Part shown: in pieces, positions 3 through 40,252 of the stretch
How positions within the stretch are numbered: the stretch's first letter is position 1
Layout: every line of letters starts with the position of its first letter
Assembly: GCA_937868875.1 (NCBI GenBank)
Contig: CALMNP010000417.1
Span: 1 to 44,170, forward strand
Length of the DNA: 44,170 bases
Source: an uncultured Bacillota bacterium
GTDB lineage: Bacteria > Bacillota > Sulfobacillia > JAMDAP01
Direction: 5' to 3'
Notes under the pieces: model-generated
Told to the model about the DNA's origin: nothing
Seen by the model: only the letters and a program-made list of their open reading frames with translations
The model's database searches: none
Program-made: the position numbers and the translations under genes

Positions 3-92
3 ACCGTGCCCGGCCCGGGGGAACTGCAGGTGCGCCTGGACTTCGGCGGCGTGGAGCGCGTGGTGCTGGCGCGGACCCTAGTCGTCTCTTAG
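3..92 (+). CDS. 3' end of an unidentified host gene (partial, 29 codons + TAG)
   Basis: Frame 3 reads TVPGPGELQVRLDFGGVERVVLARTLVVS*. Third positions are almost all G/C up to ~nt 77, as in the high-GC backbone. The last 15 nt (78..92) overlap the convergent small island ORF. Too short to name. Confidence 0.4.
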   Translation, partial: TVPGPGELQVRLDFGGVERVVLARTLVVS

Positions 93-578
93 CGACGGGA
101 AATGGTATACGAGAAAGTCTACGAACTCACTTGGGGCCCACGGATCGGGTCCCACGGGGTAGTGGATATGGTCCTCGATTGGACGAGGATGGTGAACATT
201 CAGGTGAGGCTGTCTGGCAACAGGAGAAGCTTCAGTGGCTAGCGCATTGAAGTCGTATCTGAATACCCATTCGAACTTTCCAGAATAGCACCCGCCATCG
301 GGCTTGCTGAACTGATATTTCCATTTTACCAGGATGTAGTCGTCGTCATCTTCGTACCTTAGCCAAGCCTCCTTAATAAGGAGGTAGTACTGCTTATCCC
401 GGAGATGGAACCCCCTTTCTGGGTCGGTGGTCGATGAGGGGGTAATCTCTCGAATGAAGTAACCCGTATATGGCTGAGGGCGGGTGACCTGCAAGATACC
501 ACCTTTGATAATCGGCTCCAACGACCTAGCCCACAGATGCCGACGCTCTTCCACTCTATCCTTCTTCATGGCCTCCAC
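78..578 (-). CDS. small hypothetical protein (163-166 aa) with an acidic DDDD patch and a C-terminal His cluster; second gene of the low-GC island
   Basis: Open frame 78..578. The start is GTG at 578 or, more likely, ATG at 569..567, which forms an ATGA overlap with the TGA (568..566) of the 930-aa gene and implies translational coupling. GC is ~50%, like its partner. Motifs read from the translation: YEDDDDYILVKWKY, WVFRYDFN, HLNVHHPRPIEDHIHYP. No family is recognised with certainty. There is only a faint, memory-based resemblance to DUF6516/TumE-type small proteins. Confidence 0.75.
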   Translation of the reverse strand: MEAMKKDRVEERRHLWARSLEPIIKGGILQVTRPQPYTGYFIREITPSSTTDPERGFHLRDKQYYLLIKEAWLRYEDDDDYILVKWKYQFSKPDGGCYSGKFEWVFRYDFNALATEASPVARQPHLNVHHPRPIEDHIHYPVGPDPWAPSEFVDFLVYHFPSLRDD

Positions 579-3358
579 CTCGTCAGAAACGGGCTGAGTT
601 CAACGGCCCTTCGAAGTGGCGCTGGGATAGCGAATACGTCCAGCACAGCGTTATCCAGATTCCTCAGGGCGTCGACATGCCTTGAGACACCGAGGAGCCG
701 GTCCCTCTCTGTCACGGCCTCAGTCAGCCCGACTATCGCATTTTGTACTGCATTTACGCTACCTGCAACGCACGACAAGTCCGCCCCTTCAGGAGGCAAT
801 ATGGGAAGAGGCTTGATGAACTTACCATAGTATGCATAGTAGCCTCCCTTTCGCTCAACGCTGGTCACAGCGACAAGCCATGAAAACAGGGCACTGTTAA
901 GTAGTCCGAGCAATAGGGATAAGTCTATGGATTCATCGGATTTCTGTGTGAGAAACGTGCCTCCAATTGGGACCATCGTCCCTTCTGGATCAAGGGCGAA
1001 ACGAGCACGCGGTGCATAGTCCGGACTTAACACCTTGGGAGAACCCGACTGTCGGGGTACGTGTGCCCACGCGTACCAGTCACGAACCTTCGTGCCCCTC
1101 CGCATGAGCAAATCCTTGTTTTCAAGAAGATAGGTATAGGCCTTCGGGTAGGATTTTAGTTCATCTTCAGGCATGAGCCCCCGGGAGTTGTACGGAAAGA
1201 GGCCAGCCAAGTTCCTAGCAGCAAAGAACGCTGAACGAATGAACCGACCAGGCATTACTGGTTGGAGGAGTTGAGACTCCAGAAGAAGAGGTGATTTGTC
1301 ACCTGTAAGCGGTGCACAAAGCCAATGGCGATCTGACGCTTTATCCATCAGGCGCATCAGGAAAACGTCGTCCTTAGCGGTTTTGGCTCCCTCTTTAACA
1401 TTGAACTCAGACTCCAAAGGGTGCCCCACGGCAGTCATGTACTGCCATAATGCGTGCTCTTCGGAATCAAGAAGTAGCCACGGACCTCCCTTTGTCTTCT
1501 GTTCAACGATGCCAAAGCGAACGTCACCTACAGGCGAATCGATCATCGAGGACTTCTCAAGTGTGAAAGCTCTACCTTCATCCGTGTCCGGCAAGTCGTA
1601 GAAACGTACCATCGCGGGGCGAGCCCTACTTGCCTGGCCGGGTCTCATGACCACAACTGATACGTAATTACTAGTGTCAGGAAAGACGTCCACGTCTGTG
1701 AAGTCAACAATCCGAACAATATCATCTGCGATTAGTTTACGGATCGGACTTCCGTGGTGGCCCTTTCCAAGGTTAGACGGCATTACCATCGAAATGGCTC
1801 CGTCTGCCTTTAGCAACCGGGACGACAGTTCAAGAAAGAGGTAGGCTAAGTCGTATCGACCGCGAGCAGACTCATACCGCCTTCTAAGCTCGTCTTGGTA
1901 GTCGCGGTCTAGCGCCCGGCGACCATCCTTGCTCACAAATGGCGGGTTGCCGACAATCACGTCGAATGTCCCACTAAGATCAGATGTATTATCCATTAAC
2001 GAGTCACGGCAAACGATATTTCTCTTCAGGTCGGGCAATGAACTGGACTGGTTGAGAGCGGCGAGAGACAGGTTCAACCGCGCTGCCTCCACCGCACGTG
2101 GATCTTTATCCCAGCCATACAGACTTTTTTGGAGAACCGCGATCCTGTCCGTGAGTGGTATATCGTTGGTGCTGATTCCTTTTGTCTCTGCCATGGTTGA
2201 AATGATCGTTTCAAAGGCGGTAACTAGGAAGGACCCAGAACCGCAAGCAGGGTCAAGGACCTTAGGGAGTACCCCTTTGCTAACAATGGATTTGATTGTG
2301 TCAGCAGTCTGCTTCACCACGTAGTGCACTAGGTACCGAGGCGTGTAGTAGATCCCCTCTGTTTTCCGTACCGACCTCAGGTGGGTTCCCGCGAGTCCGA
2401 AATGCTGCTGCCCTGCTCTTCTGGACTCACGGACAATCACCGATTCTGGCGAATACGACAAGTACTCTTCATAAAAGGCCCCCAGCAAGTCTACATCTAG
2501 CAGTCCGAAGTCTAGTTGAAGGTGGTCAAGTACCGTTGGGGTGTAGAGTCCCGATATAAGCTGCATCGGTGAGAAATCGTTAATCGAATCTAGGTCGGCC
2601 GAATCGTCAGGGTGCCCCTGGAAAAGCGTACTATCATATCGCTCCTTTAGGCGGCTAAGGTATGTAAGAAGCGAAGATTGACCGGCATTTGCGGCCCCGA
2701 GTAAGCTTTTGGGCGGCTCCCACCCGCGGTCTTCGGCATAACGAGCGAATATCAGGCGAGCAAAGAGCAAGTACAGAGCCGAATCCAGGTCGGTAGTTCT
2801 CGATTTGGGGGAATCCGCCAAGACTGCACGTCGCCAAGCCGTAAAATGGCGGAGGAGGTGCTGCACTAATGTCGGACCCCAAGACTCCAAAGGTTTCTGC
2901 GCCAGGGCATAGCGCTCCAAATCACCCGAGTATAGGGCTGTCGGGTACAAGAAATCCAAATCCGCCAAGGAGCCAATAATCTCGTCCCAGGTGCTAGAGA
3001 ATACTGGAACAGGCTCTTTGTGCTCAAGAGGCCAGAGTACGTTGTACAGGCCAATACCGTCGTTCGGGTCTACTGAGGCAAGCCACCTGACGTCCTTGTT
3101 GTAAGCGAGGGTAAGAGCAGGTAGGAGAGGCTGGCCCCCGCAGAGAACGGCCATGTGGGGAATGTTTTGTGCTCCAAAGAAATCCACTCGGACTCCATGA
3201 CTCTCAGGGGAGACAACTGGGCCGTCCCAACCTAGGCCGCTCATCACTCGGGCCAAAACGAGGGCTCCATCTTCACAACTGGCCCTACGGAGGCGCCACA
3301 GGTCCTCAGCAATAGCGCTGGGCAGTGGCACGCGAAACACCTCCTTTGCTTTCTTCAT
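566..3358 (-). CDS. single-chain type IIG-like restriction-modification protein: N-terminal putative nuclease/unknown region, helical spacer, gamma-class N6-adenine DNA methyltransferase, long C-terminal target-recognition region
   Basis: 930-aa ORF. AdoMet motif I is DPACGSGSFL (nt 2254..2225) and catalytic motif IV is NPPF (nt 1948..1937). GIYYTPRYLV precedes motif I. The helical segment LYLLFARLIFARYAEDRGW is typical of Eco57I/MmeI/PglX-type enzymes. About 450 aa follow NPPF, which fits a specificity domain. ATG 3358 has a poor SD. The alternative GTG 3331..3329 lies 8 nt after AAGGAGG (3346..3340). Confidence 0.85.
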   Translation of the reverse strand: MKKAKEVFRVPLPSAIAEDLWRLRRASCEDGALVLARVMSGLGWDGPVVSPESHGVRVDFFGAQNIPHMAVLCGGQPLLPALTLAYNKDVRWLASVDPNDGIGLYNVLWPLEHKEPVPVFSSTWDEIIGSLADLDFLYPTALYSGDLERYALAQKPLESWGPTLVQHLLRHFTAWRRAVLADSPKSRTTDLDSALYLLFARLIFARYAEDRGWEPPKSLLGAANAGQSSLLTYLSRLKERYDSTLFQGHPDDSADLDSINDFSPMQLISGLYTPTVLDHLQLDFGLLDVDLLGAFYEEYLSYSPESVIVRESRRAGQQHFGLAGTHLRSVRKTEGIYYTPRYLVHYVVKQTADTIKSIVSKGVLPKVLDPACGSGSFLVTAFETIISTMAETKGISTNDIPLTDRIAVLQKSLYGWDKDPRAVEAARLNLSLAALNQSSSLPDLKRNIVCRDSLMDNTSDLSGTFDVIVGNPPFVSKDGRRALDRDYQDELRRRYESARGRYDLAYLFLELSSRLLKADGAISMVMPSNLGKGHHGSPIRKLIADDIVRIVDFTDVDVFPDTSNYVSVVVMRPGQASRARPAMVRFYDLPDTDEGRAFTLEKSSMIDSPVGDVRFGIVEQKTKGGPWLLLDSEEHALWQYMTAVGHPLESEFNVKEGAKTAKDDVFLMRLMDKASDRHWLCAPLTGDKSPLLLESQLLQPVMPGRFIRSAFFAARNLAGLFPYNSRGLMPEDELKSYPKAYTYLLENKDLLMRRGTKVRDWYAWAHVPRQSGSPKVLSPDYAPRARFALDPEGTMVPIGGTFLTQKSDESIDLSLLLGLLNSALFSWLVAVTSVERKGGYYAYYGKFIKPLPILPPEGADLSCVAGSVNAVQNAIVGLTEAVTERDRLLGVSRHVDALRNLDNAVLDVFAIPAPLRRAVELSPFLTRWRP

Positions 3359-3436
3359 ACCCTAAATTCGACTTCGCTGGCAAAATCCCTCGTATATCCC
3401 ACAAATTTCTATTATCCTTTTTTGGAGGGACTCCCC

Positions 3437-4501
3437 GTGCTGACCCGCCTTTACCGGCTGCAGGGAACTGAACAGGACTGGGCGGGGGCCCTGGCGGACG
3501 CGGCTCGGGTGCTGCGGTCCGGCGGGCTGGTCGCCTTTCCCACAGAGACGGTCTACGGCCTGGGCGCCAACGCCCTGGACCCGCAGGCCGTTCGCCGCAT
3601 CTTCACGGCCAAGGGCAGGCCGCAGGACAACCCGCTCATCGTCCACGTCGCCGGCGCGGAGCAGGTCCCTGGGCTGGTGCGCCACATCCCCCCCGTCGCC
3701 GAGCGGCTGATGGCGGCGTTCTGGCCGGGGCCCCTGACCCTGGTGCTGCCTCGCCTGGCGGTGGTGCCGCTGGAGGTGACCGCCGGCCTGGAGACGGTGG
3801 CCGTTCGCTTCCCCTCCCACCCCGTGGCGCAGGCCCTGCTGCGCACAGCCGGTGTGCCTGTGGCCGCGCCCAGCGCCAATCGCTCCGGCCGGCCGAGTCC
3901 AACGCGGGCCGAACACGTCATGGAAGATATGGAGGGCCGGGTAGAGGTCGTGCTGGACGGCGGCCCCTGCGGCGTCGGCCTGGAGTCCACCGTGGTGGAC
4001 TGCACTTCGTCCCGCCTGCGCCTGCTGCGCCCGGGCGGCGTGACGCCGCAGGACCTGGAACGGGTGGCAGGGCCGGTGGAGGTGGACCCCGGGGTGCTGA
4101 AGGTGCGGCGCGCCGAAGACCTGGGCCCAGTGGCCTCGCCCGGCATGAAGTACCGGCACTACGCCCCCCGGGGGGAGGCGACGCTGTTCGAGGGCGACAA
4201 GGCAGCCCTGCCGGCGGCCTTGCGAGAAGCGGCCGAAGAGGCGGCGAAACGCGGCCTGACCGTCGCCGTGGTGGCCAGCGACGAGACGCTGGCGGCCTAC
4301 CGGGGACCCGGGTACCCCATCTCTCTCGGCAGCCGGCGGGACCTCCCGGCCATGGCCTCGAGCCTGTTCGACGCCCTGCACCGCTGCGACCAGGTCGGGG
4401 CCGGTCGCGTCCTGCTGGAAGGCGTGGAGCCGGAAGGCGTGGGACTGGCCATCGCCAACCGCCTGCGCCGCGCCGCCGGAGGCCGCGTGGTGCGGCTGTA
4501 G
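3437..4501 (+). CDS. tsaC: L-threonylcarbamoyladenylate synthase (Sua5/YwlC type, t6A biosynthesis)
   Basis: Signatures AFPTETVYGLGANA and SANRSGRPSPT plus a C-terminal Sua5 domain. GGAGGG (3424..3429) lies 7 nt before GTG 3437; the ORF opens at TTG 3422. Confidence 0.9.
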   Translation: MLTRLYRLQGTEQDWAGALADAARVLRSGGLVAFPTETVYGLGANALDPQAVRRIFTAKGRPQDNPLIVHVAGAEQVPGLVRHIPPVAERLMAAFWPGPLTLVLPRLAVVPLEVTAGLETVAVRFPSHPVAQALLRTAGVPVAAPSANRSGRPSPTRAEHVMEDMEGRVEVVLDGGPCGVGLESTVVDCTSSRLRLLRPGGVTPQDLERVAGPVEVDPGVLKVRRAEDLGPVASPGMKYRHYAPRGEATLFEGDKAALPAALREAAEEAAKRGLTVAVVASDETLAAYRGPGYPISLGSRRDLPAMASSLFDALHRCDQVGAGRVLLEGVEPEGVGLAIANRLRRAAGGRVVRL

Positions 4502-27790: not shown

Positions 27791-28975
27791 ATGATCCGCT
27801 CGCTCTGGTCGGCTGCGTCCGGCATGCTGGCGCAGCAGATGAACGTCGATACCATCGCCAACAATCTGGCAAACGTCAATACCCCGGGCTTCAAGAAGTC
27901 CCGGGTGGAGTTCGAGGACCTGCTCTATCAGGTGATCCGGCCCCCGCAGCAAGTCGGGACGGGCCAGAACGCCCGTACCGTGCCGGGGCTGGACGTCGGT
28001 CTGGGCGTTCGTCCTGTGGCCACCCTGCGGCAGTTTTCGCCGGGCAACCTGCAGCCCACGGACAACCCCAGCGATTTCGCCATCCGCGGCGACGGCTTTT
28101 TCCTGGTCACGGACGGCACCGCCAAGTTCTACACGCGTGCCGGCAACTTCCAGTTAGACAGCGCCGGAAACCTGGTGACTCCGGAGGGCTACAAGCTGCT
28201 CAGCGAGGCCGGCCAGCCCATTAAGATCGACTTGAACCAGACCATGGGCGCCAAGGCGACCACCAAGGTCACCCTGGGCGGCATCATCAGTTCGAACACG
28301 CCCATCCAGCCTGACCCGGGCTCGACCTTCACCCTGGGATTCGGCGTGGTGGACAGCCGGGGCGGCCCCCAGTCCATCGACCTGACCTTCACGCACACCG
28401 CCGCTAACACCTGGACGGTAGCCAACGGCACGGCCACGACCACGCTGACCATCGACCCCACCACAGGCAAACCGACGGGCACGGCCAGCCTGAGCGTCAC
28501 CTACACGCCCTCCTACACGGGCGCCACAGCGCAGACGGTGGCCTTTGACCTCAGCCAACTGATCAGCAACAGCAGTCCCACCGACGTCAACGTGGCCACC
28601 CAGGACGGCGCCAGCGCCGGCAAGGTGGACCGCTTCAGCGTCGGCCCCGACGGCACGGTGACCCTGAGCTTCACCAACGGCCAGACACAGCAGGCCTCGC
28701 AGATCGGCCTGGCCCGGTTCTCCAATCCCGCCGGCCTGATGGCCGTGGGCCAGAACCTCTACCAGGAGACCGCCGCCTCCGGCCAGGCCCAGACGGGCAA
28801 GCCCGGCAGCGCCCAGTTCGGCAGCCTGGCGCAGTCGGCCCTGGAGACGTCCAACGTGCAGGTGGTCGAGGAGATGGTCAACCTCATCGTGGCTCAGCGC
28901 GCCTACGAGATCAACTCCAAGGCGGTACAGAGCTCCGACGAGATGCTGGGCATCGCCAACGGCCTGCGACGCTAG
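27791..28975 (+). CDS. flhP: flagellar rod/hook-family protein (FlhP/FlgG termini with a FlgE-like central insertion)
   Basis: The N-terminus MIRSLWSAASGMLAQQMNVDTIANNLANVNTPGFKKSR and the C-terminus SNVQVVEEMVNLIVAQRAYEINSK match FlgG. The protein is 394 aa, and its middle section (VVDSRGGPQSIDLTFTHTAANTWTV ... QDGASAGKVDRFSVGPDGTVTLSFTNG) is hook-like. Confidence 0.85.
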   Translation: MIRSLWSAASGMLAQQMNVDTIANNLANVNTPGFKKSRVEFEDLLYQVIRPPQQVGTGQNARTVPGLDVGLGVRPVATLRQFSPGNLQPTDNPSDFAIRGDGFFLVTDGTAKFYTRAGNFQLDSAGNLVTPEGYKLLSEAGQPIKIDLNQTMGAKATTKVTLGGIISSNTPIQPDPGSTFTLGFGVVDSRGGPQSIDLTFTHTAANTWTVANGTATTTLTIDPTTGKPTGTASLSVTYTPSYTGATAQTVAFDLSQLISNSSPTDVNVATQDGASAGKVDRFSVGPDGTVTLSFTNGQTQQASQIGLARFSNPAGLMAVGQNLYQETAASGQAQTGKPGSAQFGSLAQSALETSNVQVVEEMVNLIVAQRAYEINSKAVQSSDEMLGIANGLRR

Positions 28976-29857: not shown

Positions 29858-29887
29858 TTGACAATTTCCGGCGGTGGATGCTACACT
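29858..29887 (+). promoter_or_regulatory. sigma-A promoter of the SAM-riboswitch operon
   Basis: TTGACA (29858..29863), 18 nt, TACACT (29882..29887), with TG at 29879..29880 (extended -10). Confidence 0.55.
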
Positions 29888-29912
29888 GGCTCTAGCCTCA
29901 ACAACTGCATGG

Positions 29913-30049
29913 CTCATCTAGAGAGGACGAGGGACTGGCCCGATGACGCCTCGACAACCGGCCGCACCTTCCGCGGTACGGTGCCAATTCCAGCAGATGA
30001 GACGAGGACGCGCGTCCTGGACCTCTTCAACGGAAGGGGTTTTTTCTTT
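29913..30049 (+). promoter_or_regulatory. SAM-I (S-box) riboswitch with terminator
   Basis: P1 is CTCATCT (29913..29919) / AGATGAG (29995..30001). The conserved core reads AGAGAGGACGAGGGACTGGCCCGATGACGCC...CAACC...GGTGCCAATTCCAGCAGATGAG. A hairpin CCTCTTC-AACG-GAAGGGG (30022..30039) plus TTTTTTCTTT (30040..30049) follows. Confidence 0.85.
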
Positions 30050-38767: not shown

Positions 38768-40252
38768 ATGGGAAACAGCCCTTTCTTTGGAATTGAGATC
38801 GGCCTTCGGGCCTTGCAGGCACAGCAGAGAGCCCTGGATGTCGTCGGCCACAATATTGCCAACGCCAACACCCCGGGTTACTCGCGCCAGCGCCTGGAAC
38901 TGACGGCCAGCGACCCGTACACGGTGCCCTCGGCCATGCGGCCGGGCGGCGTGCCCGGCCAGGTCGGCACGGGCGTTACGGAAGAGGCCGTGCGCCGCTT
39001 CCGCGACACGTTCCTGGACCGCCAGTACCGCAACGAGAACAACTCTTACGGCACCTGGGCGACCCGCGAACAGGTCCTGGGCCAGGTGGAAGCCATCTTC
39101 ATGGAGCCCACGGACAACGGCCTGCGAGCCACCATCGACAAGTTCTGGCAGGCGGTTCAGGACCTGGCCAATGACCCGGACGGCTCTTCCGCCCGTTCCC
39201 TGGTGCGCCAGCGGGCCGTGGAGTTTACATCGACCCTGTCCCACATGTACAAGCAGATTGCCGACCTGCGTGACAACACCACCTCCGACATGGGCGCTAA
39301 GATCAAGGAAATCAACACGGTGGTGGAGCAGGTCGCGTCCCTCAACCGCCAGATCAGCCAGGCCATGGCTGTGGGCGACACCCCCAACGACCTGATGGAC
39401 AAGCGGGATCTGCTGGTGGACAACCTGACGAAGCGGGTGGATGCCCGTGAGGTGCTTCAGCCGAATGGCATCCTTAACGTCTATATCGGCGGTGTCCCTG
39501 CCGTTGAGGGCTTCGACGCCCATCACCTCAAGATGGAGACCGAGCAGGTAACCGCTCCGGTCATCTGGGACCACCTGAACCGGCCCGCGGCCATCAACGG
39601 CGGCGACCTGGGCGCCCTCATCGGACTGCGGGACAATGACCTGACCAACTACCTGGACCAACTGGACTGGATTGCCTACCAGTTCGGGGCAGCCTTCAAC
39701 GCCCAGCACCGGCAAGGCTTCGACCTGAACAGCAACCCCGGCGGCGACTTCTTCGACGGGCTCCCTGTGGGGACGCCTCCCGACTCCTTCGCCGAGCACG
39801 TCGGCGCCGCCAGCCGGATCACCGTCTCCGCCGCCATCATGTCCGATCTGAACCTGATCGCCTCGGCCGCCTCCGCTCCTGTGAAGGTGGAGGACCGCGG
39901 CAATGCCGAAAAACTGTCGGATCTGTTCCGTGACGCCAAGCTTTTTCCGCCCCCGGACCCCGCTGCCACACCGCCCTATGTTTACACAGCGCCGCTTTCG
40001 GACTACTACATTTCCGTCACGTCCCGCCTCGGCGTGGATTCTCAGGCGGCCCAACGCTTGGCCGGGAACCAGGAACTGCTTCTGAAGTCCATTGACAACC
40101 AGCGCACCGGCGTCTCCGGCGTCTCCCTGGACGAAGAGATGGTCAACATGATCAAGTATCAGAACGCCTACAGCGCTGCGGCGCGCATCGTGACCACCGT
40201 GGACGAGATGCTCGACACCATTATCAACCGGCTTGGCATCGTTGGGAGGTAA
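38768..40252 (+). CDS. flgK: flagellar hook-associated protein 1
   Basis: GLRALQAQQRALDVVGHNIANANTPGYSRQR at the N-terminus and VSLDEEMVNMIKYQNAYSAAARIV at the C-terminus. Confidence 0.93.
   Translation: MGNSPFFGIEIGLRALQAQQRALDVVGHNIANANTPGYSRQRLELTASDPYTVPSAMRPGGVPGQVGTGVTEEAVRRFRDTFLDRQYRNENNSYGTWATREQVLGQVEAIFMEPTDNGLRATIDKFWQAVQDLANDPDGSSARSLVRQRAVEFTSTLSHMYKQIADLRDNTTSDMGAKIKEINTVVEQVASLNRQISQAMAVGDTPNDLMDKRDLLVDNLTKRVDAREVLQPNGILNVYIGGVPAVEGFDAHHLKMETEQVTAPVIWDHLNRPAAINGGDLGALIGLRDNDLTNYLDQLDWIAYQFGAAFNAQHRQGFDLNSNPGGDFFDGLPVGTPPDSFAEHVGAASRITVSAAIMSDLNLIASAASAPVKVEDRGNAEKLSDLFRDAKLFPPPDPAATPPYVYTAPLSDYYISVTSRLGVDSQAAQRLAGNQELLLKSIDNQRTGVSGVSLDEEMVNMIKYQNAYSAAARIVTTVDEMLDTIINRLGIVGR

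Follow-up and report, generated by a model that had tools for sequence, protein, structure and literature searches.

A small protein family encoded directly downstream of type IIG-like methyltransferases that appear to be nuclease-dead, and its possible remote relationship to TumE toxins

Results

A two-gene island of low GC content

We analyzed a 44,170-nucleotide stretch of DNA from an uncultured Bacillota bacterium (contig CALMNP010000417.1), which we call the window, and within it a small gene whose product has 163 amino acids. The small gene lies directly downstream of a gene for an Eco57I-like N6-adenine DNA methyltransferase, and these are the only two genes on an island whose guanine-plus-cytosine (GC) content is far below that of the surrounding chromosome (Table 1). 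The island is flanked by a convergent host gene on one side and by a divergent sua5/tsaC-like gene (with Sua5 domains at 3422-4501) on the other. The pair is a rare two-gene operon that was acquired by horizontal transfer. At the island's borders we found no flanking direct repeats, tRNA, or integrase, and scans for promoters and terminators gave results at chance level. Four independent metagenome assemblies (loci L001-L004) break within 130-280 nt of the borders, a hint of polymorphism for the island in the population.

Table 1. Features of the island and of the small gene in the window.
Feature	Position	Strand	Basis or remark
Low-GC island, two genes only	80..3400	.	Composition profile: ~52% GC within a ~70% GC chromosome
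Partner gene, 930 amino acids, Eco57I-like N6-adenine DNA methyltransferase	566..3358	-	Pfam, PADLOC
ATGA start/stop overlap of the methyltransferase gene and the small gene	566..569	-	Translational coupling
Small-subunit gene	78..569	-	163 amino acids from ATG 569; stop codon 78-80; ORF list and sequence, homologues
DDDD acidic patch, residues 73-76	342..353	-	Turn between two strands; lineage-specific
Beta-sheet core, residues 53-108	246..413	-	Alignment; AlphaFold2 strands 53-56, 62-72, 78-88, 103-108
Conserved His/Pro loop, residues 121-138, P-H-L-N-x-H-H-P-x-P ... H-Y-P	156..209	-	Alignment columns

The first-pass annotation of this DNA had described an open reading frame (ORF) at 78..578 on the minus strand, and we find that ORF; in the 163-residue form, all three peptides that were quoted from it are present, at residues 72, 99, and 122. 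If it were read from an alternative start, GTG 578, its product would have 166 amino acids. ATG 569 is the likely start because the N-termini of the relatives described below align with the ATG form. The sequence GAGGTGGAGG, a Shine-Dalgarno-like run, stands immediately 5' of this ATG. The ATG (569..567) overlaps the TGA (568..566) of the methyltransferase gene, which confirms the proposed ATGA coupling to the upstream gene. The small gene had also been said to end within the last codons of the convergent host gene, and it does: the host ORF (plus strand, frame 3) stops at 90..92 and shares 15 nt with the small gene. Independent gene calls on four other metagenome contigs give the same small protein with the same overlap of the host gene. 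As described, the small protein has no P-loop and no segment that resembles a transmembrane helix (the Kyte-Doolittle maximum is 0.39 over a 19-residue window).

The last four to five codons of the convergent host gene, together with its stop (90-92), lie in lower-GC sequence at 75-92 that overlaps the 3' end of the small gene. The insertion may have replaced the native C-terminus of the host gene.

A type IIG-like partner without the nuclease motif

In Pfam, the partner protein matches Eco57I (E = 5e-23), N6_Mtase (7e-22), and TaqI_C (3.7e-6), as well as MmeI_Mtase, and in PADLOC it matches MTase_II and REase_MTase_IIG. Its closest relatives of solved structure are CamA, M.BseCI, and BsaXI. 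Among four partners, neither motif I (LDPACGSGSF) nor motif IV (NPPF) varies, and the TaqI_C-like recognition domain is kept; these are the methyltransferase motifs and the target recognition domain of a type IIG enzyme.

Type IIG enzymes, such as BpuSI, cut DNA via an N-terminal PD-x15-ExK domain (PMC3185434). The N-terminal domain of the partner is homologous to those of Eco57I-like enzymes from plasmids (E = 5e-5 to 5e-8). The canonical plasmid relatives (L025 and L026) carry PDY-x13-EAK, which we take to be the catalytic motif of Eco57I. In the partners from four lineages, a deletion has removed the PD segment, and LALQ or CGGQ stands in place of EAK. A block further downstream ([YR][AG][YF]... 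and NF[DEH]...Y) is retained. Also, PADLOC's type IIG profile aligns only from profile position 178 with the partner in the window and from position 115 with the partner in L023. Because PD-x13-EAK is deleted or substituted in the alignment, we infer that the partner serves in methylation and recognition and is nuclease-dead, its nuclease-like N-terminal domain being degenerate. So the earlier description of the partner as a type IIG enzyme needs correcting: it has Eco57I-type methyltransferase motifs and a TaqI_C domain, and it has lost the nuclease motif.

The two canonical plasmid loci, L025 4435-9304 from Escherichia coli and L026 2184-7212 from Mesorhizobium, encode a fusion of restriction and modification domains with PD-x13-EAK along with a separate N6 methyltransferase. 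This second, stand-alone methyltransferase is lacking in modules like the one in the window. The Mesorhizobium locus also has a ribbon-helix-helix (RHH) gene upstream.

The two genes always occur together

In every contig that is long enough to tell, the small gene is directly 3' of an Eco57I-like methyltransferase gene. This holds for six lineages (the window, L005-7, L023, L008-12, L013, and L014), and the partners have 930-964 amino acids with N6_Mtase, Eco57I, and TaqI_C domains. The junction between the two genes is ATGA in the window, TGATG in L005, L008, L013, and L023, and TGA-A-ATG, with a 1-nt spacer, in L014, where the true small ORF has 162 codons for amino acids. The pairwise identities of the small proteins and of the methyltransferases are.34/.31,.34/.32,.31/.31,.77/.79,.60/.61, and.63/.61. 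Since the two values are nearly equal in every comparison, both genes have diverged as a unit.

Some of the relatives are in larger cassettes. The Dehalococcoidia-type cassette (L023 2459-7362; also L005 and L006) has four genes, which encode a 70-amino-acid RHH-like protein, a 964-amino-acid methyltransferase, a 164-amino-acid small protein, and a 351-amino-acid PLD-family protein. We identified the 70-amino-acid protein, which is encoded upstream, as RHH-like by reading its sequence. The 351-amino-acid protein is encoded 3' of the small gene in L005-7 and L023. Its PLDc_2 domain contains the motif HxK...GSxN (HAK...GSAN in L023), it matches DrmC, ZacB, and RE_NgoFVII weakly, and its C-terminal ~200 amino acids have no family assignment. 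The PLD gene is lacking in the window, in the L008 group, and in L013, and therefore the conserved core of these loci is the methyltransferase and the small protein.

A rare family under purifying selection

The small protein had been called an orphan, and it is not one. HMMER, run exhaustively against 1.84 billion representative proteins, identified three true relatives (E = 9e-35 to 1e-9), and after a profile search of 5.8 billion clusters the family comprises ten clusters (at 90% identity), nine of them beyond the window's own. All of these are from metagenomes or metagenome-assembled genomes (MAGs), and none has a Pfam domain or a name. A genome scan placed one family member on a Dehalococcoidia MAG contig (L023), which was the only new locus from scans of our collections; the scans of viral and metagenome contigs gave no additional family loci. 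A word-indexed homologue search with the single sequence from the window returned only the query itself, and tblastn of the relative P0008 against plasmids returned only noise. A 1941-amino-acid repeat protein (P0005) was rejected as a compositional false match.

Homologues are 29-52% identical to the window's small protein. The invariant columns of the family are G53, L56, D58, E67, Y85, Q86, P90, W101, R104, P121, H122, L123, and F157, and the near-invariant ones are N124, H126, H127, P128, P130, H136, Y137, P138, F149, H156, and P158. Position 106, which lies in an FR[FY][DE] motif within the beta-sheet core, is always acidic (D or E). The first-pass annotation had singled out a histidine cluster and a DDDD patch. 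The histidines largely bear this out: H122-x3-H126-H127, H136-Y-P, and H156-F-P vary little or not at all. The DDDD patch is conserved in none of the nine relatives' sequences, and it is confined to the window's own subclade, as are D133 and H134 (the "DH" of DHIH). From this pattern of conservation, we propose that the loop at residues 121-138 is a putative metal or catalytic site.

The ratio of nonsynonymous to synonymous substitution rates (dN/dS, by the Nei-Gojobori method) is 0.12 for the small genes of L005 and L013 and about 0.2 for those of the window and L014. As judged from these substitutions, the small gene is under purifying selection and encodes a genuine protein of 163 amino acids. 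The low dN/dS and the conservation therefore make the small gene far more than a chance ORF.

The window's small protein had no useful match in Pfam, NCBIfam, PADLOC, or PHROGs, and sequence searches of the PDB, with the single sequence or with the family profile, gave only noise (for example NikD and Csm2, with E > 0.01). We treated matches to DUF4454, Ntox24, Dicty_CAD, and DUF384, each from one or two family members, as noise. We also dropped readings of the histidine cluster as HNH, HUH, HIT, cupin, or PD-(D/E)xK because, judging by eye, the family does not conserve the residues that they would need.

Predicted structure

An alignment-based AlphaFold2 model of the small protein has a predicted local distance difference test score (pLDDT) of 68.8 and a predicted template modeling score (pTM) of 0.67. 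(A single-sequence model was poor, with pLDDT 41.) The alignment-based model has a helix at residues 5-17, six strands, a short helix of four residues at 116-119, and a helix at 146-156. So the core is predicted to be beta-rich, as the first-pass annotation had supposed, with six strands between two helices.

Is the small protein related to TumE?

The first-pass annotation had suggested that the small protein resembles TumE (DUF6516). The toxins of the validated TumE family block translation, and they are predicted to be nucleic-acid hydrolases (PMC10584680). They are described as alpha+beta proteins in which two helices pack on an antiparallel sheet of seven strands, and the gene is usually downstream of that of its partner (PMC10584680).

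The window's protein matches neither the Pfam model of TumE (PF20126) nor the NCBIfam model (NF045777) at E ≤ 10, and it cannot be counted as a member of TumE/DUF6516 by its sequence. Some of its relatives come closer. When each family member was scanned singly, 6 of 10 gave TumE matches, all of them below the gathering cut-off of PF20126 (23.4 bits) or the curated, equivalog cut-off of NF045777 (90 bits). With PF20126, P0008, P0010, and P0011 score 15.6, 13.6, and 12.9 bits (E = 0.016-0.11), and with NF045777, P0006-P0009 score 12.8-17.8 bits (E = 0.0025-0.087). By comparison, a positive-control TumE-like sequence scores 61 bits on the Pfam model. TumE is the sole family that was matched repeatedly across the small-protein family.

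These sub-threshold matches span the equivalents of residues 55-130, and they are mutually collinear if the 122-position NCBIfam model corresponds to the Pfam domain plus about 43 N-terminal positions. The shared register pairs Y85, the acidic position 106, and H122 with the Y (of KYSL), D (of GxDN), and H (of DHxH) that are invariant in our TumE alignment, and it pairs E67 with a glutamate that is conserved in part of the TumE family. One hhalign run, which compares profiles, picked the same register (KYQxS with KYSL and FRYD with GFDN). There are other likenesses: as modeled, the small protein is, like TumE, a small alpha+beta protein that has two helices along with an antiparallel sheet, of about six to seven strands, and its gene, as in most TumE clusters, is the downstream one of a bicistron. 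We looked for a TumE structure in the PDB and there is none; the predicted architecture of the small protein is compatible with the published description of TumE and does not discriminate.

There are also clear differences. In place of the DN and DHRH motifs of TumE, the small-protein family has [DE][YF][DN] and PHLNxHH. The small protein is longer (163 amino acids as compared to about 95-125) and includes a Pro/His-rich loop, of about 15 residues, that TumE lacks. And its partner is a 930-amino-acid methyltransferase, not the small DNA-binding protein TumA: we found no small TumA-type antitoxin ORF between or after the two genes, and the sole partner in all lineages is the 930-964-amino-acid methyltransferase.

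Given that the sub-threshold matches are collinear and that the predicted architecture fits the description of TumE, a very remote relationship is plausible, and we think that its chances are somewhat better than even. So the part of the earlier suggestion that stands is a faint resemblance, in one register, in six of the ten family members; the window's protein itself fails both models, and its relatives stay below the cut-offs.

We also came across some loci with bona fide TumE genes. On the plasmid pSmeRU11b of Sinorhizobium meliloti (L027 3528-5105), a DUF6516/TumE gene is 55 nt downstream of a gene for a 412-amino-acid "methyltransferase"; typing of that methyltransferase gave no type. 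At eight other plasmid loci (L015-L022), the TumE gene is upstream of a helix-turn-helix (HTH) or hypothetical partner, with an overlap of 4 nt in seven of them and of 13 nt in L018. This order is the opposite of the predominant one in the TumE paper (PMC10584680).

Discussion

What might the small protein do?

The reading that we favor, to which we give a probability of about 40%, is that the low-GC island carries a module with a nuclease-dead methyltransferase, and that the small protein is the module's TumE-like, histidine-dependent effector subunit. It would form a complex with the methyltransferase. The small protein would be a very divergent, TumE-like hydrolase of a nuclease type that depends on histidines or on a metal; the conservation of E67, Y85, Q86, R104, the acidic residue at 106, H122, N124, H126, H127, H136, and H156 is catalytic-looking. 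The methyltransferase, as the recognition subunit, would mark self DNA, and it would either target the small effector or hold it latent. The trigger might be unmodified foreign DNA or the inhibition of the methyltransferase by a phage. The effector would then act on nucleic acid, which could be DNA or, if it shuts off translation as TumE does, RNA. In the four-gene cassettes, with an RHH regulator, the methyltransferase, the small protein, and a PLD nuclease, a classical restriction nuclease would additionally be present.

Latency of this kind would resemble that of the anticodon nuclease PrrC, which the type Ic restriction enzyme EcoprrI keeps latent and which is a precedent for a toxin that is held by a restriction-modification (R-M) enzyme (PMC1484252). 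The likeness is a functional analogy only: in both cases a potentially translation-targeting toxin is inside an R-M cassette and is proposed to be silenced by an R-M protein. There is no relationship in sequence or domains to PrrC or RloC. PrrC consists of ABC-ATPase and anticodon-nuclease domains, whereas the small protein has no P-loop and no family match.

A bolder version is that these genes are a new defense or addiction module, in which a methyltransferase that derives from a type IIG enzyme and lacks its own nuclease controls a tiny TumE-like toxin. We consider this version unlikely. In it, the methyltransferase could sense unmodified DNA and direct the toxin to it, or it could be a "guarded" antitoxin. 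If it is guarded, then an attack by phage on the methyltransferase would release a translation-blocking nuclease, and the pair would be a minimal, two-gene counterpart of PrrC-EcoprrI.

Several results weigh against an effector that is related to TumE. First, the window's protein matches no known nuclease, toxin, or metal-binding family above threshold. Second, the predicted structure gives little help. The His/Pro loop at residues 121-138 has pLDDT below 50, the loop at 111-139 is modeled poorly, and the structural check that had been suggested, with AlphaFold and Foldseek, gave no significant match: against the PDB and BFVD, nothing had E < 0.05, and there were only generic NTF2-like or cystatin-like cones (E > 0.1). 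Third, our own profiles did not detect the relationship. We built a hidden Markov model of TumE from 126 alpha- and beta-proteobacterial sequences (the reference genes were taken from plasmids via the control query, along with 120 from the protein collection), and it scores the small-protein family at ≤ 0.6 bits. Across local and global modes of hhalign, three of four runs were non-significant (P = 0.34-0.43), and the fourth, which compared the window's subclade to long TumE proteins, had P = 0.11 with a different register. A reciprocal search did not separate TumE sequences from background ORFs. Fourth, L012, which is 99.85% identical to L008, has a GGA to TGA nonsense codon inside the methyltransferase gene (at about 1520-1530) while its small gene is intact. 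This could be a real variant, or it could be an assembly or read error. A real variant of this kind would speak against a toxin whose neutralization depends on the methyltransferase. Finally, all of the cutting by the Dehalococcoidia-type cassettes could come from their PLD nuclease, and the small protein would then have a non-catalytic role.

Alternative explanations

This last point leads to the strongest alternative, which is that the small protein is a non-catalytic accessory subunit. The nuclease-dead methyltransferase might depend on it, much like PglX on its BREX partners, in order to be assembled, stable, active, or specific, or the small protein might be a bridge to the PLD nuclease, and the histidine cluster would be a structural metal site. 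The strict co-occurrence, the translational coupling, and the equal divergence of the two genes would be expected of any obligate heteromer, so they fit an accessory subunit as well as they fit an effector. The presence in the four-gene cassettes of a separate PLD nuclease with an HKD-type motif, the intact small gene of L012, and the lack of above-threshold similarity to any enzyme would also be explained. On the other hand, three lineages (the window, the L008 group, and L013) have the pair and no PLD gene, the residues that never vary form a polar, histidine-rich cluster like that of an active site, and the sole recurrent family signal is to a toxin family. On balance we find an accessory subunit somewhat unlikely.

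It is very unlikely that the small protein is a self-standing TumE-type toxin from an ordinary type II toxin-antitoxin pair that happens to have no functional link to the methyltransferase. The sub-threshold TumE matches would be accounted for, and TumE genes are usually downstream of their partners (PMC10584680), but the window's protein fails both TumE models and no ORF for a small antitoxin lies between the two genes or after them. Also, the methyltransferase gene is immediately upstream in all lineages, with overlapping stop and start codons in five of the six, and the two genes have co-diverged.

Small proteins in R-M-like operons can call to mind the transcriptional controllers known as C proteins, and both the size and the setting of the small gene would suit a controller or another DNA-binding regulator. 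Still, no HTH, RHH, or other DNA-binding family was matched, the predicted fold is beta-rich, and the downstream, translationally coupled position is unlike that of C proteins. The four-gene cassettes already have a separate 70-amino-acid RHH protein upstream. We think that this explanation is even less probable than an unlinked toxin.

Finally, there is next to no chance that the small gene is a spurious or decaying ORF with no product, as had been allowed for if it was not conserved: although the window's protein has no match in Pfam, NCBIfam, PADLOC, or PHROGs and its single-sequence model has low confidence, the reading frame is kept over 10 clusters, at identities as low as 29%, some motifs never vary, dN/dS is low, and the coupling to the upstream gene is conserved.

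Comparison to known systems

The partner has the architecture of type IIG enzymes such as Eco57I, BpuSI, and MmeI: a nuclease-like N-terminal domain, a helical linker, a gamma-class N6-adenine methyltransferase domain, and a TaqI_C-like domain. It differs from them in the loss of PD-x13-EAK and in the presence of a conserved small gene downstream. Another nuclease-less, type IIG-like methyltransferase that works with other subunits is PglX of the BREX systems. PglX has no nuclease activity and depends on other BREX proteins. The partner matches the PglX models weakly, at 57-60 bits as compared to BREX cut-offs of 400-900, and the two-gene operon has no genes for BrxA, BrxB, BrxC, PglZ, or BrxL. 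As for restriction endonucleases of the PLD family (BfiI and NgoAVII) and DrmC of DISARM, the likeness is only via the 351-amino-acid protein of the relatives, which is absent from the window, and the four-gene cassettes do not include the DISARM helicase genes.

Neither the family nor its pairing with a nuclease-dead type IIG-like methyltransferase is described in the libraries and literature that we searched. The components are of known kinds, namely methyltransferases that derive from R-M systems and, possibly, TumE-like toxins. If the small protein is an effector, then these loci would be a new build of restriction-like system, in which a nuclease-less polypeptide for recognition and methylation works with a 160-amino-acid protein that acts in trans and is at most a distant relative of TumE toxins. 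They would also be a mechanistic link between R-M and toxin-antitoxin systems and a second biological context for the poorly understood TumE fold. Because the recognition domain sits in the methyltransferase, such a module would be compact and sequence-programmable. Even as an accessory subunit, the small protein would still be a new obligate partner for nuclease-dead type IIG-like methyltransferases. Either way, the ecological weight of these systems is small, as the family is extremely rare.

Other features of the window

Further along the window, on the plus strand, there is a SAM (S-box) riboswitch at 29911-30003 (Rfam RF00162, 63.5 bits), upstream of an ORF that starts near 29858/30000. 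The window also includes flagellar genes at 27791-28975 and 38768-40252, both on the plus strand, whose mates in 90%-identity clusters mark the host as an uncultured, high-GC member of the Bacillota; these mates, from Bacillota MAGs, are named FlgF and FlgK.

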